64,000 nt of DNA. It comes from a virus. The position numbers were made by a program, and so were the translations under genes. Where the stretch lies: positions 1-64,000 of IMG/VR virus record IMGVR_UViG_3300048442_000818; one strand, written 5' to 3'. Positions 972-41,131 of the stretch are shown in pieces (the stretch's first letter is position 1; each line of letters starts with the position of its first letter). The notes beneath the pieces are model-generated. The model was given only the letters and a program-made list of their open reading frames with translations, did not search any database and was not told the origin of the DNA.

Positions 972-1151
972 ATGGACTTCATTAACAAAAAAGATGTTAT
1001 TGATCGGCCTTATATTGCTGGCTTTAAGGACCAGAAAGTTGCTCTTTATGCTCGCAGTCTAGCTGCTGCCAAGCAAACAGCAGTAGAACATTTCCGACCG
1101 AAAAAACGTGATAAAGGTCTTCTTTGGGTAGAACTTGTTGACAGGAAATAA
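972..1151 (+). CDS. small hypothetical protein (59 aa, MDFINKKDVIDRPY...), not in the ORF track
   Basis: GAGG RBS before ATG 972; TAA 1149-1151; fills the gap exactly. Confidence 0.7.
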   Translation: MDFINKKDVIDRPYIAGFKDQKVALYARSLAAAKQTAVEHFRPKKRDKGLLWVELVDRK

Positions 1152-1153
1152 TT

Positions 1154-2314
1154 ATGGATCTGCAACCTGCTGATGAAGATACACTCGATCTTAATCAACT
1201 CTCAAGAGAACTCGATAAAGCAAAATCCTCAGTGTTTCTTGGAAAGAATGCTGCTTTCCTTGGCTCACTAATGTGTACTTTGAATTTTGTTTGGACTCGT
1301 GGAATTCCATCAGCAGGTACAGATGCTGTTACGCTTTGGTGGAACCCAGATTGGTTTATGACACTGGATCCTAAAGTACGTGAAACTGTTCTTCTTCATG
1401 AACTGTGGCACGCTGCCAGACTTCACATGATTCGTGAAGGTAGCCGTAACCATGAAATCTGGAATTATGCCTGCGATATCCGAATCAATAATGACCTTGA
1501 AAACGAAGGTTATTCTTTCCTTGGGGTCGAAGACTGTTGGAAAGATCATTCAGTAGACCATAATGGCACTGCGGCTGAAGAGGATATTTATGATCTCCTC
1601 ATGCAGCACCAAAATCCGCCACCACCAAGTGGTAGTTGGGGTGATGGCAAATCAGACATGATTCCGATGTCTGAGTCCCAAAAACAGACGGCTGTTAATA
1701 ACGTCGTTCAGGCTGTACAACAGGCCAAAGTAGCTGGTCAAGCTGGTAATCTACCGGGTGGTATTGAAGAAACTCTGAAAAAGTTCCTTGAACCAGTGAT
1801 CCCATGGCAGAGTGTATTGATGCAATTCTTTACTGATTTGCTCAATGAAGATTTCACTTGGAAACGCCCAAACCGTCGTCACCAAAATATTTACCTCCCG
1901 TCACGCTATACCGATGATGGTCGATTAGAACATCTCATGTATTTCTTGGATGTGTCAGGCTCCATTAGGGAATCTGATCTACTTCGCTTTAATAGTGAAG
2001 TGAAATATATCCAAGAAACTCTCAAACCCCAAAAACTAACTCTTGTTCAGTTTGATACTAAAATCACTGATGTGAAAGAGTTTAAAGAAGATGATCCCTT
2101 TGATGAAATTAAAATCAAAGGTCGGGGTGGTACTTCATTTGTACCTGTTAAGCAATACATCGAAAAACATAAACCCACAGCAGCAATTATCTTTTCTGAT
2201 ATGTACTGTGCTCCTATGGAACCATTACAAGAAGAGATACCGATTATTTGGGTAGCTATTGATAATCGTGGTGCTACTGTTCCTTTCGGCAAGTTGATTC
2301 ATATCAGCGATTAG
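1154..2314 (+). CDS. metallopeptidase-like + vWA domain protein (N4 gp25-like)
   Basis: HELWH (HExxH), MIDAS DVSGS, GRGGT, FSD. Confidence 0.9.
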   Translation: MDLQPADEDTLDLNQLSRELDKAKSSVFLGKNAAFLGSLMCTLNFVWTRGIPSAGTDAVTLWWNPDWFMTLDPKVRETVLLHELWHAARLHMIREGSRNHEIWNYACDIRINNDLENEGYSFLGVEDCWKDHSVDHNGTAAEEDIYDLLMQHQNPPPPSGSWGDGKSDMIPMSESQKQTAVNNVVQAVQQAKVAGQAGNLPGGIEETLKKFLEPVIPWQSVLMQFFTDLLNEDFTWKRPNRRHQNIYLPSRYTDDGRLEHLMYFLDVSGSIRESDLLRFNSEVKYIQETLKPQKLTLVQFDTKITDVKEFKEDDPFDEIKIKGRGGTSFVPVKQYIEKHKPTAAIIFSDMYCAPMEPLQEEIPIIWVAIDNRGATVPFGKLIHISD

Positions 2315-26998: not shown

Positions 26999-29900
26999 TT
27001 AGTCCATCAGACTATACCAGGGGTTCAGTTCCCAACTGTTCCAACCCATTTCAGGACCAATTGAGTAACCAAGACTACCATCCATAGCTTGAGTGAAGAT
27101 GTTATCATTTACTGGTAAACCAACACTGCTGGGTGCAGGTAGAGTTGATGCTACTAAGAAATGTAGAGGATTGTTTCTAAGAGTACTTAAGGCAATCTTA
27201 GCAATACGGATCTTGTAGTTGTAAAACCACAGTAGACCCATATTCTCCATATACCCTCTCCAACGTCCCGGTAAGCGATCATAGTTCGCAAACTCGGTAG
27301 TTACCCTACCCAAAGCATCAGCACTACTCATTTTCTTACGTTGAGTTAAATCATCGTAGAGTACTGCTTTAGCTACAAAGTCACTGTACTGTACAGACTT
27401 TTGAAGAGCCTGGAACAGTGGAGTGTCTTTCATGATTAAACCATACCGGGCAGCCGTTCTGAGTTTGGGGGGCAGCTTATCAATCTGCTTACTGAAGTAG
27501 CTGTACAGATTACCAGTAGTCAGTTCCAGATCTTCAGAAGACATACCGATATCCGCAATAGTGCTGAATTCCCCTGCCTGGATCAAAGGCCAGATACTCA
27601 GACGCTGATTAGAGTCAGTGATGGATCGGATCTCAGCACGCAGTTTACGCTCCCGTACAAAGTCTTGGCCTACCGCCCTGAGTTCAGCTTCCAAATCAAT
27701 CTGACGTAAGCGGTTCTTCACATAAGCATTGATCTCTACCAGCTTAGCTGGATACCCACGTTTGATATCCCGTACCGGTACACCTCTACTCACCAACTGG
27801 TAAGTGGTTGAAATGAAGTTATACACCGGTACTACCACCGATCTAACAATAATGTTAGTACGAATATCAGACATTATATTTTGTGTGAATTGTTCACCTT
27901 TCACTAGAGTTTTATAAGCATCTGGTCCCATTAAACCAACAAAGAAGTTTCTCCAAGCTTCATTAGTTAATGGATCTCTGTTGTTGCTATTGGTCCAGAA
28001 ATCACCAACAGAAGGGTTACGATAACCTACTGCATCTTCTAGCATATCTTTACGAACCCAGAATTCATCCCCAAATTTGCGATGAATATAATCTCTAGTA
28101 TCGTCAGAGAATAAATTCACAGCATCTCTTTGTACTGGGCTAAGATTAGAACCAAAAAGGTTCACATACTCGTTGATTTTATCACGGCTAATTTTCATAT
28201 CAGCCGTATACATATCATGGAGTCTATCAATAGAAGTCTCGTTGAAAATTTGAGACATCTTTTCTTCAACCTGACGACCTCGCCAAACACCTAACATCCG
28301 GCTTAGGTCTTGTGATTCAGGTTCCAAACGGGCTTTCTGTGCTGGATCCACTGACTGCTCGTAAGCAAAGATTTGGCCTCTCTCATCGAATACAGGCATC
28401 AGGTTCTCAACATCACCCTGTTCTTGAGACAGTCTGCGAGTGATTCGGGTCACATCAGCACGCCCAAAGATACGACCTGCCACCAGATCAGAGGTGAGAC
28501 CTGTATGGGGATCAACTCCTGAAGCCGTACGGTTGATGTTCTGAATAAAGCCTTGAGCATAAGCAGTACGACCAGAAATAGGAGTAAAGTAGTAGCTCTT
28601 GCTTGAGCGTCGGTTATCCACATTACTACCGTTATACGGACCCATGTTCACATAACCACGGATCCGCATATTGGACTCCTGGGCATTCTCTTCAATACGT
28701 AGAGATGCACCAGGGCTTTGCTCAGCCGGTATATGGCCTTTGTAGTGGTTCACCAGGGCCTTACCCTTGTTTGCCTTACGAAGCTCTGTTCTACGCTGTC
28801 CTTGAAGGTATCCCAGCACGAAGTTGAGACCATTGCTCTCATCCTGAACCAAGGAGGCCATAGCCTGCTTATCCTGGGTGGATAAACCATCCACAGCGTA
28901 CAGAGTGATCAGTTGATCAATAGACCGTTGTATGGAGCTGTCAGGTGCCTTCCAGCCTGCTTGTCTGGATTCACCAAATAGGTTTGAGATCGCATAAGCA
29001 TTACGAAGCAGACTGACCCCTGTTTTACCGGTGTTCATGAAAGTGGCAAGTTGCTTCATCTTTCTTTGGTAAATAGGCCAGTGAGCAGTATCACTCTGCT
29101 GAATGAGTCCTTCCAGATCGTTGATCAAAGCATCCAGTGAAGTTTGGCTCTGGAATAGATCCACGATATCTTGCGCAGGCATTGTTTCCATCAGGGCTGC
29201 CAGATCCGTTTTACCCATAGAACGGTACATTGAGGACCATTCTTCCTGAGACAGCTTTCGACTGAATTTGTTATGCAGCACTCGTGGAATTTCATCTCTA
29301 AAGTTCTGACGTAATTGCTGCACTGCTGCCCTGACAGTTTTGATCATGTCATAGACTTGAGCATTGCCTTCGGTACGATCTACAAGGTTGTTCACCAAAT
29401 CATAGAACGGCTTCCAGATCCGACCACGGTTCATTAATCCCATCAGTTCTTGGGATACCATGTCGGCTCGTTCTTCAGAGGCAATGGACGAAGCCAGCTT
29501 TAGGAAGTTACCTGCGAGTTTAGTTGGAAGACTCTGGGATTCCTGTCCTTTGGTTCCAAGTTTGTAACCGGTATCTGCAAGGGTTTGCATACCGTTTACC
29601 ATCCAATCGTTTACAGCGTCATATTTATTACCAATCTTATCTGTTACCTCGCGGATAGTGGTCTGCTCATCCAAAGCAGCTTTGGTAATCTGATTCATCA
29701 AATTATCCATAGCCGCTTTGACATTGGCAGCATCACGCTGACCTGACATACGATTTGACAGTGAATCTGATGCAGTGACCAATAAGTTATCCAAAGCAGC
29801 ATCCATAGTTTTTTGATCTGACTTAACAGATTTTGGAACCTGCATATTTGCTAAGATATCTCTAAACTCTTGGTTCACAGTGGATAGTGCAATGAACACA

Positions 29901-32900
29901 GGTAACAGAGTAGTGCGCCCATATGCATCTGTTTGACGATTTACTCGACCCAAAATAGTGTTGTATTTTTCTTGCGCATAATAGCGATCAGCATCAGGGT
30001 TACGAGAATTCTCTGGCATAAAGCTATCAACACTCAGGTTTTTAGTTACATGAGTGTATAGCTCCTGCATTTGAGCCAAAGCGTTAGGATCCAATTTAGC
30101 TTCAGTAGCCAGAGTAGCTACGATTGTTTTGAATGTGGTGGCTTCATTGATATCCATATTGAAGTGAGCACTTACTGCATCATTCAGAGCATCAATGGCT
30201 ACTTGGCCTGATTCTGAAAGGAGGCGGTTCTGCTGCACTTCGCGTTCGGTATCGGGATACTCATCTAAGAGATCAACAATCTTGGTTTGAAGAGCATTAC
30301 GGATATCTCGTAAGCGGGTATTATTCCCATAGGTTGCATGGAATAACGTACCTTCCTGGAATACAGAAGATAGATTTGGCTGAGTACGAATAATGATACC
30401 GGTGTTGAATTGTAGATTACTCAACACATCATCAGCGTGTTTAGGAGCGTGCTTACGACCCCAAACTAATTTCTTGATTTCTTGCCACAGATCTTTAGCA
30501 AGTTGAACTAACTTGTTCGTTTTTGTTTTCTTCAGTCGATTAGTGATCTGTTCGTTAGTAAGACCCCATGCCATAAACTCGTTAAGGGCTTTAGCCTGTG
30601 AGGCAGCAGGATCCATATTCAGATCATTCTGAGCACTCTCAATAGCAGCTCTAGCATTATCAAATGCCATGTACATTTCGTTAGGTAAACCACTTTCCAG
30701 ATCCATGGAAAGAAAATCATTGAGCATGATCTCCATTCGCTCAATAGCCCTTCTTGCTTCTGGATCCACTTTTTCACCACGATAATATGAAAGCAGTGTT
30801 TCATAGGTAGAAGCGTGAACCATTTCGTGGACCAAGGTTTCAGTGGTTGGGTTGATCAGATAAATCACCCGTTCCGCTACTGAAATCACACCGTGAGCCG
30901 TAGCATCTCCCGTGTTAATTGAACTCAAGCCAGTTTCACGTTGGTATGCAGCAATTTGCTCAGGTGTACCAGCAATGATTTTGTAATCTTTGGTTCCCAG
31001 ATTACGAATGATTTGAGCATAGATATCTCTTTGTGGTTGGGTCATGTTGACCAACCGACCGAGATTTTTCAGGGCTGTCCAGCTAATTACACGTACACCT
31101 GAAGCTTTATGTTCACGGCCCACTTTCTGAATATCTTCAGACATGCCATCAGCTACAGGAGCTTCTTCTGTAGCTTGCTGTTTGCCTGAAATTTTCTCTT
31201 GATAACGAGCATTCAATTCATCAGCAATTTGTTCAGGTGTCATCTGTGCATCAAGAGTTACAGTTCCATTCACATAAGGTGAGGCAGCACCAGCCATATG
31301 ATCAATAGAATGAAGAACATCACTCATTACCTGACGACGAATAGAGACACTATCTTCCGCTTGCTGAAGAAATTTACCTTTCCTATCCAACATATCCAAG
31401 ATAGCTTGAGAAGTAGCTACTTCTTCTTCTGGATCCAGATAAGGAAACAAGGCACGGGTAAAATCTCTATGCATCGGTGTATCTTTCACCTGCATATCAT
31501 TCTTTAACATATCTTCGATTAGATCTTTTGATTTCATAAATTGTTTATAGGAATCATTGACTGCCTTAAACGGATTACCATTGATCCAGGAGTCATACAC
31601 AGCCTTATTGGCTTTTTCACTGTATTCAGTGATTTTATCCAAAGGCATGTTGATACCATCAAAGATATCAAGGGTATTGTTCATTTCAGTATCCAGAGAA
31701 GTTCTCTGGATCATGTTAGCGTCACCCATACCAATGGTTAGGAACGGAATACCCGCAACACCAGCATTGGCTGGGGCATAAGCGTAAGCATCCGTTCTCA
31801 TGGTTCCATCAAGAGCACGACTGAATGCTGGACCACCTTCAAGCATCTGAGTCTTAGCAATTAGAAATACTTGACCTTGTGTTTGAACCAAAGGAGATAC
31901 TTTGAATATTTCTTTGTAGATTGCAGTGAAGTCTTTACGAGAAAGGAAATCACCAGGACGGTAGGTAGGATCATTTTTCTTACGATCCTCTAACCGTTCA
32001 TTAATCAATCTACGGAACAGATACTCCAAAACAATAGACTGTGATTGGGTTGCTTGACGGATTTTATCAACAGACCTCATAAGAGGAGCACCAACTGTAT
32101 CTTCAATACCAAACCGCAGAGGTCTAACAAAACCTTCAAGCATGTTTTGTTTGATACTTTGGATCTGTTCTGGTGTAAAAGTGAACTCTACTGGATCCGC
32201 AGACTGACGTGTGCGATCTGAAGGTTCTAAGAAGTATTCACCACTTCTCTGGTTATAGCGTATTTTATTGGCTAACAGGGTATTTAAAGCATCAACAAAC
32301 TGACGACCCTGTTTTTCAGGATTTGGTTCATTAGGGAATAGAGCTTCACCCAAGGTAATTTTAGGATAAGCTTCTCTTGCCTGGGCAAATTGAGACATTT
32401 TACTGTAAATGTCTTTCACCATTTGGGATGTAAGATTACCAGCAATACCTGAGATTGAAGAACCATACACCAAAATGGTAAGTGGGTTCTTGGCAATACC
32501 ACGGTCAAGCTCAAAGGATCCTGGCTCACCTAATTCAACATCACCGTTGTACTTAACACCCGGTAATGTGACATTCATCAATGTCATCAATGCCTTAACG
32601 TTACCTAGTAGCCCATCAGATTTCTTATTACGACCCAGTACATTGATAAGGGTACGTAGATGCTTATCTGAATTGATCGTAGCTGTTTTGTACAAATCAA
32701 CAGGATCTCTTTGGCTGAGTTCAGCCATAGTTTGGCGAGTGCCGATAGAGACACCACCTTTAGAAATATTCTGGATCCACTCAGGAGTAAACCGGCCTGG
32801 GGTCATTAACATCATAGCGTTGATTGGGCCATCGGTTACACCATCCCCCTCAAGATATATTGAGGTACGGAAAGATTCTCTCTCACCTAACGGAGTTTGT

Positions 32901-35900
32901 GTTAACCGTGCGTATTCCATAAGAGCATTCAAAGCTACAGGCGTAACATCAATACCCGCAGAATCAAGATGACCCTTCAGAATATAAGCATCCAGAGGAT
33001 TTACCTCAGTAGTTATTAATGAGTTGGTATCAGTGCCACTTACCCAATCGTTGATCAGATCCAGAGCAGGGACCAAAGGACCAGTAAGTAAGTTTTGTAC
33101 TTGCTCAACTGTATCTTCTAAAAGTTGATTATGAACTTTAATATCTAATGCTTGACCAATAGAAAGTAAGAAATGATTGTAAATAGTACTGTTTTCATTA
33201 GACAAATCAACAGTACTCCACGTAGGTAGAATAGCCTCACGAACTGCTTTATCTGATTGAGGGTTGTAAGCACCCAGCATCTGCATACGCCCAACACGGG
33301 AAATATTATAAGCGTACCGAATTGGCATCTCAGAAACCGATACACCTTCTGTTTCAGCACGGTTAACCATACGATCAACCGTATTAAATAGGTGATTGTA
33401 TGCAGAAGTAATAGTGCGATTTTTACCTTCAATAGATTTAGCATGGTTTATATTAAGGGTTTGATTATCACCCGCTGATTCACCAAGCAGAGTTAACATA
33501 CCCTCTCTACCGAAAGCAGAGTATAGATTTACCATTGGAATATTCAGATAAAAAGGTACTTTTTGTTTGTTCTCAATCGCTTCTTTTTGTTTTATAGTGT
33601 TAGCTACTTCTGGGTTATTCATCTGACGCTGGGCAACAGGAATTTCCTGATCACCAATGTAGAACACTTCTTCTGGACTAATTAGAACAGCATCATCAAT
33701 AGCAGTTGGGTAAGCATGAATTGGATTACCTTCCATTGGTGATACAAGATACCGATTAGGTGTTTTATCTGAATCCAGACCAAAGGATTTCAGGTCAACG
33801 GTAGTGACACCCATCATACCCGTATCAATAAAAGCCCTGATCATTTCAGCAGCTACTGCTTCAGGAATACCCTCAGAATAAGCAATGTCCGCATCAGCAG
33901 TAGCCGTTACACCCCAGTATTCTTTGATCTTGTTAGCAAGAGATCGCTTCACCTGCTCAAGACTCATACCCTCATTGAGAAGGCGTATGACCTCATAAGG
34001 TACGATTTCAGCGTCCACACCAGTGATAGCAGAGATGTCTGAATCATCCATTGGAGTGTGGTACTGGTTAGATGTCAGTAACCACTGAATAGCTGCTAAA
34101 GCAGCAGTCTCTAACAATTCTGGGTTGTATTGGTAACCTTCTGGTGTTTCATCAACAATATTAAGTGCTTTACCTCTAGCCCATCTTTGAATATCAGCAT
34201 CAGTTTCTAATACATCACGGATCGTTCTTTTATCTTTATTTGAAGACCATGAATAACGACTATTTAAGAAACGATCTAAATTAGCAGACATAGCTGACAT
34301 AAGACCACCGACAGATTGAACACTTTTAATCTGTGCAGCAGTAAGATCATTAGTTTCACTCTTTATCAGGTATTCACTTGCTTTTGGATCATTGCGTAAC
34401 AAAGTTTGATATTCAGATGCGATCTCAGGAGTTAAAGTGTATTTAGGGGTATTACCCATAAATTCAATCAAACTCCCGGATGAAGATAAAGCATCTTGAA
34501 CCAAGAGGATGGGGGATCCTTCTTGACCGATTAATCGAGTAGGTGCTTCTTCTGTGTTCGGTAATCTGAACACTTTTTTGAAGAAGTTTTCACCGCGAGT
34601 AAGTAGATTTGGGTATAGGGAATCCAAACCTGTAGTGGGGGTATCTACCGGTTCAGCCTCAGCAGAAACAGGTTCTGGGGTGGATTCCTCTATAGTGGTA
34701 TCCACTTCTTCCTGGGGCTGTGTTTGAACAGGCTCTGGATCAGGTTGAGTTTCAGTAACTGGCTCAGGTTCTGGCTGTGCTTCTTGTTCTTGCACCTCTG
34801 GTTCAGGTTCAGCCGGTTTATTGATCTCAGCAAACGCCTCCGCAGGGGTAAGCTTACGGATATCAGCATCTGTTAAGCCACGCTCTCTTAATTGAGCACG
34901 CATAGCTTGCGTGATCATTACGGGTACGCTGGCTGTAGTGGTTTTTTGTGTTGGCGTATCTTTTGTGATTTGCTGTACCTGATCGGGGTTAAATACTACA
35001 ACCTCCTCGTAACGGAACTCAGGGTCTGCATAAAGTAAGCCGTCATACCCTTCCGTTATTAAGGCATCACGTTGTTCTGGTGTGATGCCTGTAATCACTA
35101 TGGGATCATTATCTTTAACCAAATAAGGATTTTGAATGTTTACCCGGAAAGTGAGTGTTACTCCCCCTTCTTGCATTCCTTGGGAATATGCAATGTTTTT
35201 TGTAGTGTAAAACCCAACGAGAGTACCCGTGTTGTTTCCTATAAAATGCACAGTAGAAGGTCGTTCACGTTCAGCAATCACTTTAAAATTTTCTGCTTCT
35301 ACTGCCCTTGTTGTGTGGTAAGTCAACCCTTTTACTACGCTATCCGGAAAAATGTGATCGTATGCAGAAGTATCAGAAATAATCTCTGATTTTGGTTCAG
35401 CTTTTTTTAATTCAGAATTAGAGGTTGACTTATTTTGTTGATTTTTCGTAAATATTTCACGTAATCTTTCAGCATTAGCAACAGCAGTAGATTTACGACG
35501 TTCAAGATCAGATTTTATCTGCTCATACCTACTATCATTTTTATCTACACCGGGATTTATATTGAGATTACGTGCATATCTTTCTGCCCTAAGTACTATA
35601 TATTCTGCAAGATCAAAACGATCATTATTAATTGCTGTATTTAGTTGTGCAAAAGTTTCTGGGTTTGAGGGATCAATTACTGGAGCAACTACCGCATCAT
35701 ATAGAGTTTTTTCTATTTCTGGGCTGTTTTGTCCTGGCGCACGATCACCCCTTATATATATTTGTTCATTCTTTTCAAAATCTAATTGTGCTTCGAGAGT
35801 CTCAATACGTAGTTCTGACCCTGACTCAAGAGTAGATTCTGCCTGTTCTTGCTGTTGTTCTGGCTCTGCTGTTACTTCAGCTTGTCTTTGTCCAGGTACA

Positions 35901-38749
35901 ACACGCTCACCGGAACGGAAAGCATCAACAACTTCTTGTGGTGTGCCTTCTAATGCTGGATCTAAAAATAGGGGTTCAAATTTCTCATTACCAAGCTCTG
36001 GGAATGCATCAACTAAACCATTGTAAATATTCACAAGAGTTTCTTGCTCAGCTTGTACTGACTTAACCAGTTCTACTGATTTAGCTGATTTCCAGTTAAC
36101 ATACATGCCTTTGCTATCTGCTTTAGGGTTATTAGATGACAATAACCACTCACGGGTAACAGGTACCAATGACATATACGGAACAGCTTCAGCATTAGGA
36201 TTGCCGTTATCAAAGTGTTCATTAGCTGCTCTAACTTTGTTTTGCATGTGTTGTACAAACAAACCAAAGTCTTCCAGACGAGCACTAGCAATATCAGGAC
36301 GATTACCACGAACAGCCTCAACAATACCTTTGGTATGCTGTAAAGCTGATCTGGCATTCTCCCTTCTTGGATCATTACTTGCTACGATCTGACTAGAAAC
36401 TACGTCTTTAGCGGTTTGCAGACCACTATCAGCAATTTTCTTCTCAAGCTTTTGACGCTCACGAAGTAAGTCATAACTAACCTGTAATGCTTGACGTTGT
36501 GAGTTAGTTAACTCTAAACGACCCTCTTCAGCGTGCTTAAGAATACCTTCAATCACTTCAGGGTTGCCCTGGTCAGGCATTAGTTCAGCCATGGCAACGG
36601 CTGTACGGACACGGCGTTGACCTTCTTCCGTGTTGACGTTTCTTTCCGTAACAGGCTTCAGTGATTTAGTTACAGCACCACTTTTAGCGGATGCATCTAA
36701 AGCACGCATAGCTCTCATTACAGAAGCATTCTTTTCCAGATCCCAGATTAACCGGTCATATCGAAGCAATGTATCTCTGGCTTCGTGATCCTCAGGGATT
36801 TTTTCCATGATAGCCGGTTCAGCTTCTTTCAGGTCCAGAAGTGGCTGCATTAGCTCCTGTAGCACTGCTGCGGCTTGGATCTGTTCTGGGCCTTCGGGTA
36901 GGCGGGCTACTTCACGAGCTACTTCCTGAATTGCTTCAACACGGTTTGTGGCCGTGGCTGTCACTTCACGAAGATTTTCTGGCACAGATTCAGGGTCAAA
37001 CTGCATAGACTGAACCAAGGAAGAAACGTAAGCATTGCCTTCTGCACGCTCTTCTGGAGTGGCTTCTACGGTGTTGATCGTATCAGACAGGTCTTGTGCT
37101 GTTTCAGCCGTCTGTTGTGCTGTAGCGGCTGCCTGCTCTCTCATGGCTTCATCACCAACAGGTGATTGCTGCTGTACCTGCTGACGAATTTTGTCACCTC
37201 TTTCAACGATAGCGTTGAAAGCAGGCTTACCTGCTTCAATAGCAGAAGAGATAGCCTTACGAGTTATTTTGTAAGTAGGTTCAGCAACAGTTCTAGTTGC
37301 TTGGGCAGCAGCACCAGGAGATCTAATAGCACCGGCGGAAGTTACACCGTAAGCAGCACCTTCACCGACTTGACGGCCCACATCAGCAGATAATGACTGC
37401 TCAGGGTCAACATATTCCTGACTAGCTAAATTCTCGGCCACACCGCTGACAGCGCCCTGTAATGCTTCTTCTCCAGGTTCTCTAAGTAGAACATCACCTG
37501 CTAACTGTCGAGCGCCAACAGCACGGAAAGGTGCTTCACCGATTCGTGAGATTGTACCTAAGCCTGCTGCAATAGGAGCTGTTCGGGTAGCAGCATAAAG
37601 ACCAGCTTCATTAGCCAAATGTGTTTTGGCTTGTTCCTGGGCTGTTGCTTCATCCATACCCTGGTCAAGAAAGTTTTGCTTCAGTTCACGATAAGGTTGT
37701 GATGTCTGTTCCAGTTGTTCTACCGGAGTAGACATAATCTCGGTATTGACCTGTTGGTAGACACCACCACCTTCCATAGCACCAATAGCAGCAGGCCAAG
37801 CAGAAGCACTGGCTAAATCACGAGTACGATCTGCTACCCTGGCAGCCGACATAGTGTCAGTTGCCCTGTCCAATTCAGCAGCTAAACGGGTAGAAACACT
37901 TCCTGCCACACCACCTGTGACAGCCCGACCAATGGCTTTAAGACCTTTGGTAATGACACCACCACCAACAATGGAACCAACACCCTCAGATGTACCTGAA
38001 AGCAACATGGTTGGGTCCGACACAGCATTGGCAATGGCATCAACAGCATCACTACCGACACGTTTAAGACCAGATACTAGTTCACCATCACCGGCTGCTA
38101 AATTAGCTTGATACTCAGCTTCATTATCTCTTTCAGCTAAATTTTGACGAGCTTCGTAATTACGACGAGCAGCACTTAACTGTTCTGATTGAGTGCCTTG
38201 TACCCATTCATTAGCGCTATTCATACCGTCAGTAATAGAAGCACCTAATTCAGCATCCAGTAAACCACCGCCCACTGCGGCAATACCACCAATGCTATTG
38301 CCCACACCAGCGGCTATCCCAGAAGCAGTGTCCCACAGTGCTTCACCAGTTGTACGGTCATAACCGGCTCTATCACGGCTTACCTCGGAAGAAGCAGCAG
38401 AAAACTGTCTAATCAATTCTGGTGCATCAGCCCCGTACTTCAAATATAACGAGGGGGTATCTAGGGTTCTGAGATCTTCCTCTAATTCACCCATGCTGGC
38501 AGCACCCATTTGGTTACCACGGCCAGCAGCAGCTTGATACATATCGGGGTTTATTTGGGGTAGTACACTACTGATTTGATCTTGCTTTTGGGCTGAAGCC
38601 TGGGTAATAGAATTCTTCTTTTCTCCTAGAGCACGTTGGAAAGCATTGTTCATAATCCCCCGTTCATCCACAGATAGTGGAGTTGCTCCTTGAGTTGGGG
38701 TAGTAGAAGACGTAACTGCTTGATCCAAGAGGGTCTGAAAATCTGCCAT
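26999..38749 (-). CDS. virion-encapsidated RNA polymerase (N4 gp50-like vRNAP), about 3916 aa
   Basis: SRVGRMQ, EGDGVTDGP (motif A), RGIAKNPLTILVYG (motif B), IFDG (motif C). No Cys seen after Met30 (ATG 38749). Confidence 0.96.
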   Translation of the reverse strand: MADFQTLLDQAVTSSTTPTQGATPLSVDERGIMNNAFQRALGEKKNSITQASAQKQDQISSVLPQINPDMYQAAAGRGNQMGAASMGELEEDLRTLDTPSLYLKYGADAPELIRQFSAASSEVSRDRAGYDRTTGEALWDTASGIAAGVGNSIGGIAAVGGGLLDAELGASITDGMNSANEWVQGTQSEQLSAARRNYEARQNLAERDNEAEYQANLAAGDGELVSGLKRVGSDAVDAIANAVSDPTMLLSGTSEGVGSIVGGGVITKGLKAIGRAVTGGVAGSVSTRLAAELDRATDTMSAARVADRTRDLASASAWPAAIGAMEGGGVYQQVNTEIMSTPVEQLEQTSQPYRELKQNFLDQGMDEATAQEQAKTHLANEAGLYAATRTAPIAAGLGTISRIGEAPFRAVGARQLAGDVLLREPGEEALQGAVSGVAENLASQEYVDPEQSLSADVGRQVGEGAAYGVTSAGAIRSPGAAAQATRTVAEPTYKITRKAISSAIEAGKPAFNAIVERGDKIRQQVQQQSPVGDEAMREQAAATAQQTAETAQDLSDTINTVEATPEERAEGNAYVSSLVQSMQFDPESVPENLREVTATATNRVEAIQEVAREVARLPEGPEQIQAAAVLQELMQPLLDLKEAEPAIMEKIPEDHEARDTLLRYDRLIWDLEKNASVMRAMRALDASAKSGAVTKSLKPVTERNVNTEEGQRRVRTAVAMAELMPDQGNPEVIEGILKHAEEGRLELTNSQRQALQVSYDLLRERQKLEKKIADSGLQTAKDVVSSQIVASNDPRRENARSALQHTKGIVEAVRGNRPDIASARLEDFGLFVQHMQNKVRAANEHFDNGNPNAEAVPYMSLVPVTREWLLSSNNPKADSKGMYVNWKSAKSVELVKSVQAEQETLVNIYNGLVDAFPELGNEKFEPLFLDPALEGTPQEVVDAFRSGERVVPGQRQAEVTAEPEQQQEQAESTLESGSELRIETLEAQLDFEKNEQIYIRGDRAPGQNSPEIEKTLYDAVVAPVIDPSNPETFAQLNTAINNDRFDLAEYIVLRAERYARNLNINPGVDKNDSRYEQIKSDLERRKSTAVANAERLREIFTKNQQNKSTSNSELKKAEPKSEIISDTSAYDHIFPDSVVKGLTYHTTRAVEAENFKVIAERERPSTVHFIGNNTGTLVGFYTTKNIAYSQGMQEGGVTLTFRVNIQNPYLVKDNDPIVITGITPEQRDALITEGYDGLLYADPEFRYEEVVVFNPDQVQQITKDTPTQKTTTASVPVMITQAMRAQLRERGLTDADIRKLTPAEAFAEINKPAEPEPEVQEQEAQPEPEPVTETQPDPEPVQTQPQEEVDTTIEESTPEPVSAEAEPVDTPTTGLDSLYPNLLTRGENFFKKVFRLPNTEEAPTRLIGQEGSPILLVQDALSSSGSLIEFMGNTPKYTLTPEIASEYQTLLRNDPKASEYLIKSETNDLTAAQIKSVQSVGGLMSAMSANLDRFLNSRYSWSSNKDKRTIRDVLETDADIQRWARGKALNIVDETPEGYQYNPELLETAALAAIQWLLTSNQYHTPMDDSDISAITGVDAEIVPYEVIRLLNEGMSLEQVKRSLANKIKEYWGVTATADADIAYSEGIPEAVAAEMIRAFIDTGMMGVTTVDLKSFGLDSDKTPNRYLVSPMEGNPIHAYPTAIDDAVLISPEEVFYIGDQEIPVAQRQMNNPEVANTIKQKEAIENKQKVPFYLNIPMVNLYSAFGREGMLTLLGESAGDNQTLNINHAKSIEGKNRTITSAYNHLFNTVDRMVNRAETEGVSVSEMPIRYAYNISRVGRMQMLGAYNPQSDKAVREAILPTWSTVDLSNENSTIYNHFLLSIGQALDIKVHNQLLEDTVEQVQNLLTGPLVPALDLINDWVSGTDTNSLITTEVNPLDAYILKGHLDSAGIDVTPVALNALMEYARLTQTPLGERESFRTSIYLEGDGVTDGPINAMMLMTPGRFTPEWIQNISKGGVSIGTRQTMAELSQRDPVDLYKTATINSDKHLRTLINVLGRNKKSDGLLGNVKALMTLMNVTLPGVKYNGDVELGEPGSFELDRGIAKNPLTILVYGSSISGIAGNLTSQMVKDIYSKMSQFAQAREAYPKITLGEALFPNEPNPEKQGRQFVDALNTLLANKIRYNQRSGEYFLEPSDRTRQSADPVEFTFTPEQIQSIKQNMLEGFVRPLRFGIEDTVGAPLMRSVDKIRQATQSQSIVLEYLFRRLINERLEDRKKNDPTYRPGDFLSRKDFTAIYKEIFKVSPLVQTQGQVFLIAKTQMLEGGPAFSRALDGTMRTDAYAYAPANAGVAGIPFLTIGMGDANMIQRTSLDTEMNNTLDIFDGINMPLDKITEYSEKANKAVYDSWINGNPFKAVNDSYKQFMKSKDLIEDMLKNDMQVKDTPMHRDFTRALFPYLDPEEEVATSQAILDMLDRKGKFLQQAEDSVSIRRQVMSDVLHSIDHMAGAASPYVNGTVTLDAQMTPEQIADELNARYQEKISGKQQATEEAPVADGMSEDIQKVGREHKASGVRVISWTALKNLGRLVNMTQPQRDIYAQIIRNLGTKDYKIIAGTPEQIAAYQRETGLSSINTGDATAHGVISVAERVIYLINPTTETLVHEMVHASTYETLLSYYRGEKVDPEARRAIERMEIMLNDFLSMDLESGLPNEMYMAFDNARAAIESAQNDLNMDPAASQAKALNEFMAWGLTNEQITNRLKKTKTNKLVQLAKDLWQEIKKLVWGRKHAPKHADDVLSNLQFNTGIIIRTQPNLSSVFQEGTLFHATYGNNTRLRDIRNALQTKIVDLLDEYPDTEREVQQNRLLSESGQVAIDALNDAVSAHFNMDINEATTFKTIVATLATEAKLDPNALAQMQELYTHVTKNLSVDSFMPENSRNPDADRYYAQEKYNTILGRVNRQTDAYGRTTLLPVFIALSTVNQEFRDILANMQVPKSVKSDQKTMDAALDNLLVTASDSLSNRMSGQRDAANVKAAMDNLMNQITKAALDEQTTIREVTDKIGNKYDAVNDWMVNGMQTLADTGYKLGTKGQESQSLPTKLAGNFLKLASSIASEERADMVSQELMGLMNRGRIWKPFYDLVNNLVDRTEGNAQVYDMIKTVRAAVQQLRQNFRDEIPRVLHNKFSRKLSQEEWSSMYRSMGKTDLAALMETMPAQDIVDLFQSQTSLDALINDLEGLIQQSDTAHWPIYQRKMKQLATFMNTGKTGVSLLRNAYAISNLFGESRQAGWKAPDSSIQRSIDQLITLYAVDGLSTQDKQAMASLVQDESNGLNFVLGYLQGQRRTELRKANKGKALVNHYKGHIPAEQSPGASLRIEENAQESNMRIRGYVNMGPYNGSNVDNRRSSKSYYFTPISGRTAYAQGFIQNINRTASGVDPHTGLTSDLVAGRIFGRADVTRITRRLSQEQGDVENLMPVFDERGQIFAYEQSVDPAQKARLEPESQDLSRMLGVWRGRQVEEKMSQIFNETSIDRLHDMYTADMKISRDKINEYVNLFGSNLSPVQRDAVNLFSDDTRDYIHRKFGDEFWVRKDMLEDAVGYRNPSVGDFWTNSNNRDPLTNEAWRNFFVGLMGPDAYKTLVKGEQFTQNIMSDIRTNIIVRSVVVPVYNFISTTYQLVSRGVPVRDIKRGYPAKLVEINAYVKNRLRQIDLEAELRAVGQDFVRERKLRAEIRSITDSNQRLSIWPLIQAGEFSTIADIGMSSEDLELTTGNLYSYFSKQIDKLPPKLRTAARYGLIMKDTPLFQALQKSVQYSDFVAKAVLYDDLTQRKKMSSADALGRVTTEFANYDRLPGRWRGYMENMGLLWFYNYKIRIAKIALSTLRNNPLHFLVASTLPAPSSVGLPVNDNIFTQAMDGSLGYSIGPEMGWNSWELNPWYSLMD

Positions 38750-38800
38750 GAGAACGGTACCCAATGTGAATATATGTTTGGAAGTAACTCTACCATAGAT

Positions 38801-38836
38801 TTGAAAAAAAGAAGCCCCACCAATGCAGGGCTTCAA
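38801..38836 (-). terminator. intrinsic terminator upstream of vRNAP
   Basis: Minus strand GAAGCCC-N10-GGGCTTC followed by T7. Confidence 0.75.
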
Positions 38837-38862: not shown

Positions 38863-40728
38863 CTACTCAATCATAAACCCTCCAGGCATATGCCGCATCA
38901 TACTATTTAATCGTTCTGTGCGGGTAGGCTCTTCACGGGTTTCCACTTCTTCTGGTTGTGTCACTGTTCTTGTTGGCATTAACGTGTCACTAGAAGCAGC
39001 ACCTTGCTGTAGCGTCCTAAGTCTCTGTTCTGCAATATCAAGTTGAGCTTTAGCCTGCCTCACTGAACCAGCTAAACCAGGACGGCTTCGGGCTGCATTT
39101 ACCAGAGTTTGGTATTCTTGATAAACCGCATTGTACTGCTGTTGGGCAGCTTCTACCTGCTGACTGATTGCTGCAACAGTCTCGTTGGCATCTTGGACTT
39201 GTGGTCCAGCACCTTGAAGATATCGATCAATTTGTTCAGAAAAACGCTCATCATTTATTCTTCGATCATTGCCAAGGTTGGGGGTCCGTCCTGTGATAGC
39301 TTGCCCTATTCCACCAAGACCTATTTCACCAAGAAATCCCAAACGACCAATATAATCGAGTACACCACCAATACCAGTTTCTGTTGGCATACCGCTGTTA
39401 AGTAACATTCTACCAATTTCTTTAGGTGGTATTTGACCACCATTTTCCTGATAAACTCTATTAATAGTTCTTTCTAGGAATTCTCCTGAAGTACCAGCAA
39501 AAGGACTATTTTCACCTGATAATTGTTGTGCAACATCATAAGGTGAAGCTGTATCAGGTAGTTCATCCAAAATAGGTGCAGAAAAGTTACCTGTTCTAAT
39601 TTGGTTTTCTGAAACACGTTCATTCAGTCTACGCTGTAGAGCAGAAGTCCCGAGGTTATTAGCAATGGTTTGCTGTTGTTTTTGTTGGCTCCAATCATCG
39701 ACGTTACCTGGACCAGCGTTATAGGCAGCCAAGGCTTTATCAACGTCCCCATCGTAGCGTTCAAGCATAGCACCCAGGTAATCACGTCCTACCCGTGCAA
39801 GCTCTTCTGGTGAGTTGTTTTCAGCCGGTCTGACGCCATAACCGGGATCTGTAGCAGTAGCAGGCATGACTTGCATCTCGCCTTGGGCACGCTCACCAGT
39901 ACGGGTAACTGGACCCTGAATTAAACTACCATCAGGGTTATATCGACGGTTACCTGATTCTTGTTGTAGTACATGAGGTACCAAAGCTTCTAGTTTTTCT
40001 TGGTTACTTTTACCAGATAAATCACCAGCAGCTTGTGTAATATTAGCCACATAGTTACGAGTTTCCTCAAAGGGGATACTTTGAACGAAACTGGAACCAA
40101 CGGGGGAAGTTGCAGGGTTAGAGCCACCAGAAGCTGCACTGGAACCAGAAGAACCAGTAACCGGACCCATTACGTTTCCATAACCGTTACCTTCCAGAAG
40201 GGCGGTAATACGGTTAGCTTGACTTGGGGTGTACTGACCAGATTGAAGACCTTGAGCGATGATGGCATTGGCTGCTTCAGCATTAGGCGCTCTCTGGACA
40301 ATATCCATATAAGCAGCTTCAGCCGCAGCATTTGTTTCATTAGCCTTACGCTCACGATCACGAGTGTATTGGGTCCAATCCTGATTTGATTGTGTAATAT
40401 CACGTTGATCTTGAGCAGTAGCACGCTGTAGCAACGTATCAGCACGGCGATCCGTTGACCGTAGTGCTTCAAGTGAAGCTCTGTTATTTAGACCATCAAC
40501 TAGTGATCCATTCTGTAGTGCTGCTCTATAGGCTTCTGGATCCTGAATAGAATTAGCACGTTGAATCAAAGCACGATCTGCTGCATCAGTTTGAGCACCG
40601 GTATAAGTATCAACACCACTTTGGGCACTGGATACAGCACGATTTAATAGATCAGCCGCAGTACGAGTACCGTAAATAGCTGACCCAAAACTGGGTGCTG
40701 AAACATTACGCCACGTTAGAGTAGCCAT
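38863..40728 (-). CDS. ejection protein (gp51-like) with a lytic transglycosylase domain
   Basis: QQESG, AQGEMQVMPATA, ALAAYNAGPG, IPFEETRNYV; N-terminal LTWRNV. Confidence 0.85.
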   Translation of the reverse strand: MATLTWRNVSAPSFGSAIYGTRTAADLLNRAVSSAQSGVDTYTGAQTDAADRALIQRANSIQDPEAYRAALQNGSLVDGLNNRASLEALRSTDRRADTLLQRATAQDQRDITQSNQDWTQYTRDRERKANETNAAAEAAYMDIVQRAPNAEAANAIIAQGLQSGQYTPSQANRITALLEGNGYGNVMGPVTGSSGSSAASGGSNPATSPVGSSFVQSIPFEETRNYVANITQAAGDLSGKSNQEKLEALVPHVLQQESGNRRYNPDGSLIQGPVTRTGERAQGEMQVMPATATDPGYGVRPAENNSPEELARVGRDYLGAMLERYDGDVDKALAAYNAGPGNVDDWSQQKQQQTIANNLGTSALQRRLNERVSENQIRTGNFSAPILDELPDTASPYDVAQQLSGENSPFAGTSGEFLERTINRVYQENGGQIPPKEIGRMLLNSGMPTETGIGGVLDYIGRLGFLGEIGLGGIGQAITGRTPNLGNDRRINDERFSEQIDRYLQGAGPQVQDANETVAAISQQVEAAQQQYNAVYQEYQTLVNAARSRPGLAGSVRQAKAQLDIAEQRLRTLQQGAASSDTLMPTRTVTQPEEVETREEPTRTERLNSMMRHMPGGFMIE

Positions 40729-40738
40729 TTACGTCTCC

Positions 40739-41131
40739 TTATCGACGTAGACGATTCTGGTCGATGTATTGTTGGGTTTGCTCGGCAGACTGGCCTTCCA
40801 TTGCACCACGGGCACGGGCACGATCTTCTAGGGTAGTGTTGTAAGATTTGATCTGATTAGCCAAATTAGTATTAGTTACATCTTTGGTGTAATCCAATTG
40901 ATCACGGGCAATTTTGTTAGCTTGCCATGCACCCCAAAGATTACCAATAGTACCTAGACCATCTAGGCCCATTTTAAAAGTGGGGGCATTTAAGCCAAAT
41001 TCAAAACCTCCGTTTTGACCCATCTGATTACCATTAAACAAGTTACCTTTATTTTGTTGTTGCATAGCTTGATTAACAGCACTCATCGGCACATTACCGA
41101 AACCTTGAATAGTTAGAAAATCTTCATTCAT
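40739..41131 (-). CDS. small virion/ejection protein (gp52-like)
   Basis: Synteny; NLANQIKSYNTTLEDRARAR. Confidence 0.8.
   Translation of the reverse strand: MNEDFLTIQGFGNVPMSAVNQAMQQQNKGNLFNGNQMGQNGGFEFGLNAPTFKMGLDGLGTIGNLWGAWQANKIARDQLDYTKDVTNTNLANQIKSYNTTLEDRARARGAMEGQSAEQTQQYIDQNRLRR

Follow-up and report, generated by a model that had tools for sequence, protein, structure and literature searches.

A divergent ART-PolyVal-type ADP-ribosyltransferase domain predicted in the virion RNA polymerase of an uncultured N4-like phage

The virion RNA polymerase (vRNAP) encoded by the virus record IMGVR_UViG_3300048442_000818 of IMG/VR carries, N-terminal to its polymerase core, a segment of about 128 amino acids (aa) which is almost certainly a genuine, if divergent, member of the ADP-ribosyltransferase (ART) family ART-PolyVal, also called 'N4-ART', a family with an H-Y-[E/D] triad that is related to Tox-ART-HYD2 and belongs to a clade akin to PARPs and toxins of diphtheria type. 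The DNA analysed here, hereafter the window, comprises positions 1 to 64,000 of that record, itself a 73,830-bp genome rated 100% complete and belonging to an uncultured N4-like phage of the Schitoviridae type. An original prediction, made from the letters of the window, had proposed an ART-PolyVal domain of the H-Y-E clade inside the vRNAP; sequence profiles, profile-profile comparison, predicted structure and the conserved triad all agree on this identity. We further consider it probable, with modest confidence, that the domain is an active enzyme delivered together with the polymerase and directed against host protein. The features that carry the argument are the following.

26999..38749, minus strand: vRNAP open reading frame (ORF), 3916 aa from its ATG (ORF list and translation, PHROG, Pfam, identity to the N4 core).
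31292..33589, minus strand: RNA polymerase core, aa 1721-2486 (Pfam).
34967..35350, minus strand: ART-PolyVal-type domain, aa 1134-1261 in ATG numbering, about 128 aa (Pfam, local hidden Markov model, hhalign, AF2).
35315..35317, minus strand: codon of His1145, predicted strand-1 His binding nicotinamide adenine dinucleotide (NAD), in Y-H-T-T; kept in every aligned relative covering the site; model strand 22-27.
35207..35209, minus strand: codon of Tyr1181, predicted strand-2 Tyr, in G-F-Y-T-T; kept in 6/6 members of the window's own sub-family (window-type) and in most bona fide members; model strand 60-63.
35003..35005, minus strand: codon of Glu1249, predicted strand-5 catalytic Glu, the second E of E-E-V-V-V-F; first residue of model strand 129-132.

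The domain had earlier been placed at 34968-35360, an interval that is out of frame and about 10 nucleotides (nt) too long; the correct one is 34967-35350. Translation of the minus strand otherwise yields the peptide as it had been described, within the vRNAP ORF and about 460 aa N-terminal of the core. Counted from an alternative TTG start at 38836, the segment spans aa 1163-1290.

At the sequence level, the Pfam profile ART-PolyVal (PF18760) matches a 217-aa piece of the protein over profile positions 10-139 of 140, with an E-value of 1.3e-4. The score of 23.2 bits stays below the curated gathering cut-off of 31.2 bits, which is an operational rule of the database and no biological feature. 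We nevertheless filed the segment as a divergent member of the family, because profile-profile and transitive evidence point there. Indeed, a phmmer search with a 151-aa fragment against 1.84 billion representative proteins returned 17 proteins only at E <= 1e-3, and 13 of the 14 relatives that were scanned match ART-PolyVal, 9 of them above the Pfam cut-off. A word-indexed search of 5.8 billion proteins added P0002 and P0003, two further full-length vRNAPs in which the module recurs; the former is the closest vRNAP relative, about 50% identical in the domain, and passes the Pfam cut-off at 32.3 bits. Moreover, a local hidden Markov model (HMM), built solely from 27 full-length bona fide ART-PolyVal repeats of unrelated multi-ART proteins, finds aa 1144-1259 of the window vRNAP (29.9 bits, E 5e-10), and alignment by hhalign of six window-type domains with these 27 repeats gives a probability of 99.5% and an E-value of 1.4e-22.

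The residues expected of such an enzyme are in place. The motif series read by eye in the original prediction is present as Y-H-T-T, G-F-Y-T-T, N-P-Y, G-Y-D-G and E-E-V-V-V-F-N-P-D-Q, and the corresponding columns vary little or not at all among the relatives, namely H25, N87, P88, G114, D116, G117, E129, F133 and Q137 in the numbering of the 151-aa fragment. The predicted triad and the N-P-Y and G-Y-D-G motifs are kept across relatives that are only 36-51% identical. The column of Glu1249 holds Glu in at least 90% of the aligned sequences and Asp in one of them, P0007.

An AF2 model of the 151-aa fragment, computed from a 12-sequence alignment, reached a mean predicted local distance difference test score (pLDDT) of 78.4 and a predicted template modelling score (pTM) of 0.73. 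Searched with Foldseek against the PDB, it retrieved a top list made nearly entirely of PARP13, tankyrases and PARP1-4, with probabilities of about 1.0. A Foldseek-independent search of 48,161 chains likewise had a top 50 consisting nearly only of members of the ART superfamily, including PARP2 (Z 7.7, root-mean-square deviation (rmsd) 4.2 Å, 120 residues), ParT, diphtheria and cholix-type toxins, NatT, MbcT, Arr and Tpt1. Each single Z-score is middling, and the weight rests on how uniform the list is. In BFVD, a library of predicted viral structures, 32 matches were found at E <= 1e-3, many of them named ART-PolyVal or PolyVal ADP-ribosyltransferase and one being a roseophage vRNAP; crAss-like, MuF-fusion and polyvalent proteins are also among them. 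An ART fold, as had been anticipated for the segment, is thus what the model predicts, with the PARP and toxin ART folds as its counterparts in the PDB and ART-PolyVal proteins in BFVD.

One further entry of the PDB deserves a separate mention. Residues 1418-1601 of chain B of 9k3a, the pre-ejectosome of cyanophage A4, resemble the ART model to the same degree as the PARPs (Z 7.4, rmsd 3.2 Å, 104 residues; Foldseek E 2.2e-3). The terms ADP-ribosyl, ART domain and PARP never occur in the text of the paper describing that structure (PMC12002296), and the cyanophage A4 ejection protein may, to judge from the model comparison, contain a packaged ART-like domain that went unremarked there.

Within the vRNAP, the domain lies in a variable, linker-rich region between a conserved N-terminal part concerned with ejection and the polymerase core. 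The region was mapped by a full-length MAFFT alignment of nine vRNAPs, which comprised those of the window, P0002, P0003 and six other Schitoviridae.

34610..35869, minus strand: variable insert ('cargo' region) holding the ART, aa 961-1380, about 420 aa (MAFFT of nine vRNAPs).
35351..35443, minus strand: low-complexity linker before the ART, aa 1103-1133, rich in N/Q/S/K/E (sequence; N-terminal end of the model with pLDDT <50).
34628..34816, minus strand: acidic Pro/Glu-rich linker after the ART, aa 1312-1374, 63 aa, of which 78% are P/E/Q/T/D (composition; pLDDT 30-40 in a 420-aa model).
34817-34927, minus strand: three-helix motif between the ART and the acidic linker, aa 1275-1311, 37 aa (by eye resembling DNA-binding motifs of HeH/SAP type).

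Across the nine vRNAPs, the sequence aligns well up to about aa 960 and again from about aa 1381 onwards. Over aa 961-1320, the proteins of N4, inbricus, Pokken, ZQ2, HN01 and Frozen have 0-12/60 residues aligned in most blocks, and 0-7/60 in the block of aa 1141-1200, into which the N-terminal half of the ART falls. The ART block of the window vRNAP recurs in P0002 and P0003. As the N4-type vRNAPs have little or no counterpart and the bounds are of low complexity, the region can fairly be described as an 'inserted module in a variable linker'. An AF model spanning all 420 aa of the insert was of low quality (pLDDT 41.6) and gives no reliable information on extra modules. In that model the three-helix motif reaches a pLDDT of 61-73, the sole other part at 60 or above being a helical stretch at model residues 121-150 (61-65); neither P0002 nor P0003 has the motif, and Pfam lends it no support.

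The composition of the segment is ordinary for its ORF. It was said to be richer in CpG than its flanks, which is not the case: it contains 13 CpG in 384 nt, compared with 11.4 +/- 3.2 in 384-nt windows across the ORF (63rd percentile), and the 500-nt flank at lower coordinates has an equal density (17 in 500 nt). The observed/expected ratio of CpG is 0.78 in the segment vs 0.64 +/- 0.16 in the ORF windows (81st percentile), and the GC content is 41.7% in the segment vs 43.2% in the whole ORF. The argument for late acquisition that had been drawn from CpG therefore fails, and we reject recent acquisition on grounds of CpG or composition, the segment being unremarkable among the windows of the ORF. 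The absence of Cys that had been noticed in the segment was borne out, although as a trait of the family and not a peculiarity of the segment, since the whole 3916-aa protein has none.

How the domain might work depends on the protein that bears it. The vRNAP ORF is about 11.8 kb long and matches PHROG 2206, 'virion RNA polymerase', at 2682 bits. Its core contains the Pfam domains vRNAP_dom_2 (aa 1721-1840), vRNAP_plug (1858-1950), N4_RNAP_helical (2048-2247) and vRNAP_dom (2331-2486), is 41% identical to the core of phage N4, and matched 234 Schitoviridae records in a core search; identity to the cores of roseophages is only 23-26%. All 17 giant proteins sampled are Cys-free, 16 of them vRNAPs and the window's included, and missing Cys is a published trait of the vRNAPs and ejection proteins of Schitoviridae (PMC11445570). 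Two more features of the locus are relevant here.

30815..30829, minus strand: H-E-x-x-H motif, aa 2641-2645, in a zincin-like metallopeptidase region 3' of the core (kept in 9/9 aligned vRNAPs).
38863..41131, minus strand: two genes directly 5' of the vRNAP gene, at the positions of N4 gp51 (621 aa) and gp52 (130 aa) (PHROG).

In PHROG, the 621-aa protein matches a virion structural protein and an endolysin-type domain (lytic transglycosylase region), and the 130-aa protein matches families of unknown function. The gene order is canonical for Schitoviridae, with plus-strand genes for primase, Sak4, SSB and RusA converging on the minus-strand vRNAP gene. Together with its two 5' neighbours, the vRNAP gene sits where Schitoviridae have a conserved ejection operon of three genes, whose products, the vRNAP and its partners, are ejected together (Lokareddy et al. 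2024, PMC11445570). Judged by its giant size, lack of Cys, N4-type single-subunit RNA polymerase core and ejection-operon position, the window protein is a Schitoviridae N4-type vRNAP. By domain content it is also a polyvalent protein, uniting an ART, an RNA polymerase core and a zincin-type region, an architecture that matches the published description (PMC5512222). The H-E-x-x-H zincin region of vRNAPs has been read as a likely processing protease for polyvalent proteins (Iyer et al. 2017, PMC5512222). A Pfam search at E <= 1 detected neither NADAR, Macro or Nudix modules nor a second zincin in the window vRNAP.

The start of the vRNAP is ambiguous, the same frame being open upstream of the ATG at 38749 to the TTG at 38836. 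The ATG is the more likely start and was used for the numbering. The extension between TTG and ATG (38749-38836, minus strand) holds the sole Cys of the frame, and a start at the ATG gives a Cys-free protein like all relatives; a clear Shine-Dalgarno sequence was not found before this ATG.

By homology with N4 and DEV, the window vRNAP would be packed in the capsid and ejected with the DNA, and the ART would therefore arrive in the cell ready-made. Starting from the identity of the domain, its predicted fold, its conserved triad, its position and its linkers, we infer catalysis, target and release as follows. His1145 and Tyr1181 would bind NAD+, and Glu1249 would catalyse the transfer of ADP-ribose; the acceptor, modified as soon as infection begins, would be some macromolecule of the host and most likely a protein; and the ART would either stay tethered beside the polymerase or be released by the zincin-type protease region of the vRNAP. 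That the domain is an active, host-protein-directed (mono-)ADP-ribosyltransferase delivered with the vRNAP is the reading that we favour, and we put it forward with a confidence that is real but limited.

Several points weigh against it. The PF18760 scores fall below the cut-off in each form of the search, being 16.9 bits for the whole protein and 18.7 bits in a genome search in addition to the value given above. The individual PDB matches are middling (Foldseek E >= 1.6e-3, Z <= 7.7). Following the catalytic His, 6/6 window-type members have Thr, Ala or Ser (Thr in the window), and the other ART-PolyVal domains aligned have Gly at this position, that is 5/5 single-domain proteins and 3/3 roseophage vRNAPs. 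Gly after the catalytic His is usual also in PARPs and diphtheria toxin; with this Gly replaced, the binding of NAD+ could be altered. Few copies of the vRNAP are packaged per N4 virion, so that bulk modification of abundant host proteins becomes less likely. Finally, no report of an activity assay for any ART-PolyVal domain was found at title and abstract level in the literature searched, where three papers carry the name of the family or its Pfam accession.

The low copy number bears also on a different view, in which the ART is active and its target is not a host protein. The acceptor would then be nucleic acid, at the ends or bases of DNA or RNA, as for DarT or Tpt1-like enzymes, or NAD-capped RNA would be attached, as by T4 ModB, or the vRNAP and ejection machinery at the site of DNA entry would themselves be modified. 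Few copies per virion favour such a local or self target, and so does the tethering of the ART about 460 aa from a DNA-dependent RNA polymerase; the HeH/SAP-like three-helix motif seen by eye at aa 1275-1311 adjoins the ART, and the structural neighbours include the nucleic-acid-directed Tpt1 and small-molecule ARTs of Arr type. Protein, nucleic-acid and RNAylation chemistries are all listed for related viral ARTs (PMC9503650). On the other hand, the best structural matches are the protein-modifying PARPs, the authors of the family group it with protein-modifying ARTs (PMC5512222), and the HeH-like motif, lacking in P0002 and P0003, is without Pfam support. We judge a target other than host protein to be unlikely.

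The replaced Gly is likewise the first argument for the view that the fold is catalytically dead or repurposed, as a spacer, as a packaging or ejection element, or as a sensor of NAD or ADP-ribose, in the manner of the pseudo-PARPs PARP13 and TASOR. The replacement extends to the whole sub-clade, the best Foldseek match is the inactive domain of PARP13 with the TASOR pseudo-PARP also listed, the Pfam score is below the cut-off, and the titles and abstracts searched contain no report of activity in the family. PARP13 has, however, lost residues of the triad, and the window-type ARTs retain them: His, Tyr and Glu, with N-P-Y and G-Y-D-G, persist across members of 36-51% identity. Moreover, the Gly after His contacts NAD through its backbone in known ARTs, and a side chain at this site need not abolish binding. 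Loss of catalysis is an explanation to which we give only a small chance.

A third question concerns origin. Local ART HMMs match 3 of 13 sampled isolate vRNAPs, those of RPP1, DSS3phi2 and DS-1410Ws-06, all of Rhodovirinae, and found no ART in the vRNAPs of N4, inbricus, Pokken, ZQ2, HN01, Frozen, RHEph16, Fifi011, KpCHEMY26 and Vibrio phi 1. The occurrence of the domain among Schitoviridae vRNAPs is patchy in this sample. With the RPP1 ART as query, tblastn retrieved 15 roseophage records from the phage collection. With the window segment, tblastn against 50,697 phage records gave no match at E <= 1e-3, and at E <= 10 only weak ones to crAss-like and unrelated phages. Also empty or nearly so were a megablast of the 8.8-kb region (no match), a search for related loci in IMG/VR (one 28-residue match only), a homologue search limited to proteins of 83-265 aa (none found), and PDB queries by sequence, one using the segment and one using an alignment that misplaced the N-terminal half of the domain and was kept out of the conclusions (no meaningful match). 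The window-type sub-family numbers six full-domain members and one fragment among the 1.84 billion representative proteins. As BLASTP of the window ART against the RPP1 ART yields no significant alignment, with G-Y-D-G alone shared, orthology with the roseophage ART is neither shown nor excluded. A tree of the domain groups the window-type ARTs in a clade of their own (support 99/98), distinct from that of Rhodovirinae, and its deep nodes are without resolution.

Independent capture of the window-type ART is possible on these sequence data. The fuller scenario, in which a separate H-[T/A/S]-T sub-family was captured independently by Schitoviridae other than roseophages, at the same pre-core linker as in roseophages, and which would amount to convergent ART loading, seems to us doubtful. 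If it were true, the substrate or acceptor might also differ, with nucleic acid or the ejection machinery being modified or a dinucleotide other than NAD+ being used. As for the notion that motifs in a fast-evolving linker resemble an ART by chance and that there is no ART domain, to which the sub-cut-off Pfam score of the window and the empty tblastn search at E <= 1e-3 could lend colour, it is very improbable and effectively refuted by the hhalign result, the fold search independent of Foldseek and the BFVD matches, along with the independent HMM, the 13 of 14 phmmer relatives and a predicted fold that finds ART structures almost exclusively.

Some side observations concern the relatives. 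The nearest ART relative of the window in the tree is P0005, a Cys-free protein of 3783 aa from an ENA metagenome, with its ART near the N-terminus (aa 349-464); Pfam finds no vRNAP domains in P0005, which may be a different kind of giant injected protein with the same ART sub-family. The metagenomic proteins P0008 (4536 aa), P0010 (2077 aa), P0013, P0014 and P0009 have between 6 and about 16 ART-PolyVal domains in tandem, in some cases together with a GNAT acetyltransferase; a protein with 12 copies of ART-PolyVal had already been noted (Iyer et al. 2017, PMC5512222). Among the tblastn matches of the segment in isolate or reference phages, those below E 1e-2 lie only in the crAss-like records cr55_1, cr1_1, cr130_1 and cr85_1 (E 9e-5 to 1e-2), and a weaker match (E 0.5) coincides with a gene whose annotation reads putative RNA-polymerase subunit.

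Should the domain be active, a host-modifying enzyme would be delivered before any phage gene expression, which bears on the takeover of the cell by N4-like phages and possibly on the evasion of NAD-linked defences. The gain is incremental, the idea and the fusion having been published in 2017 and 2022; our work carries the ART-vRNAP fusion to phages other than roseophages, delimits a rare sub-clade with an altered residue beside the catalytic His, and charts the variable stretch before the core in which it lies. Furthermore, the compact, linker-bounded module of 128 aa would be a convenient construct for a first biochemistry of ART-PolyVal.

Among known systems, the closest are the roseophage vRNAPs. 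The novelty that the original prediction had implied for the ART-vRNAP fusion and for its Alt-like role does not hold, as both are found in Iyer et al. 2017 (PMC5512222), where N4-like RNA polymerases are described as possible fusion partners of an NAD+-dependent ART, the vRNAP CBX87992.1 of RPP1 is cited, and an early role like that of T4 Alt is proposed for the fusion. There the RPP1 domain is the prototype of the ART family of polyvalent proteins, a family that is related to Tox-ART-HYD2 and has a strand-1 His, a strand-2 Tyr and an acidic residue in strand 5 (PMC5512222). A later survey counts the 'N4-like' ART family among the commonest viral ARTs and argues that the packaging of ARTs into virions is widespread (Iyer et al. 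2022, PMC9503650). In the literature searched, N4-like, ADP-ribosyltransferase and vRNAP come together in Iyer et al. 2017 only.

Like the window protein, the roseophage vRNAPs, with that of Roseovarius Plymouth podovirus 1 (CBX87992.1) as prototype, have a PF18760 domain on an N4-like vRNAP and a predicted role as injected early effector. In all of them the ART precedes the core, at about 900-1260 aa from the N-terminus (RPP1 1023-1129, DSS3phi2 929-1038, DS-1410Ws-06 966-1067, window 1134-1261). They differ in that the roseophage ARTs have H-G-T where the window type has H-[T/A/S]-T, and in that the window type keeps Tyr and Glu, whereas the roseophage ARTs align with Phe and an unclear strand-5 residue. 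The polymerase cores differ as well, that of the window being 41% identical to N4 and 23-26% to roseophages, while the N4-type relatives of the window are without ART. In addition, the RPP1 vRNAP has an extra Peptidase_M90/SprT-like zincin right after its ART (aa 1252-1387), and Pfam detects none at this place in the window vRNAP; the zincin of the latter is the H-E-x-x-H region, while RPP1 has its own M90/SprT-like match.

T4 Alt offers a working analogy for the window ART, as a virion-borne ART that enters together with the DNA and works ahead of phage gene expression; Iyer et al. 2017 drew the comparison themselves (PMC5512222). Alt belongs to the R-S-E (Alt/VIP2) clade and the window ART to the H-Y-E clade; membership of Alt/VIP2 was considered and rejected, the triad being H-Y-E and no Pfam family of Alt/VIP2 type matching at E <= 1. 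Alt is moreover a separate protein, whereas the window ART is a module of a polymerase, and the activity and targets of Alt are established experimentally, whereas those of the window ART are putative.

The PARPs (PARP1/2/3/4, tankyrases and PARP13) are the closest solved structures, with the common ART fold and H-Y-E on strands 1, 2 and 5. The window ART is only 12-18% identical to their catalytic domains; it has about 128 aa vs about 200 or more, lacks the helical regulatory and acceptor-loop elements, and nothing indicates that it forms polymers. The PARP profile of Pfam (PF00644) has no match in the window protein, and structural similarity is limited to Z <= 7.7. From the model, the two appear to share a fold at clade level, and we claim no membership of the PARP family.

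Finally, crAss-like virion RNA polymerase proteins, MuF fusions and polyvalent proteins with multiple ARTs have the same ART-PolyVal family in large virion-delivered proteins, although carriers and copy numbers differ, with up to 11-16 tandem ARTs in P0008 and P0010 and one in the window vRNAP. Against this background, the fusion itself has been in print since 2017, and what is new is a rare sub-clade outside roseophages with a changed residue after the catalytic His.

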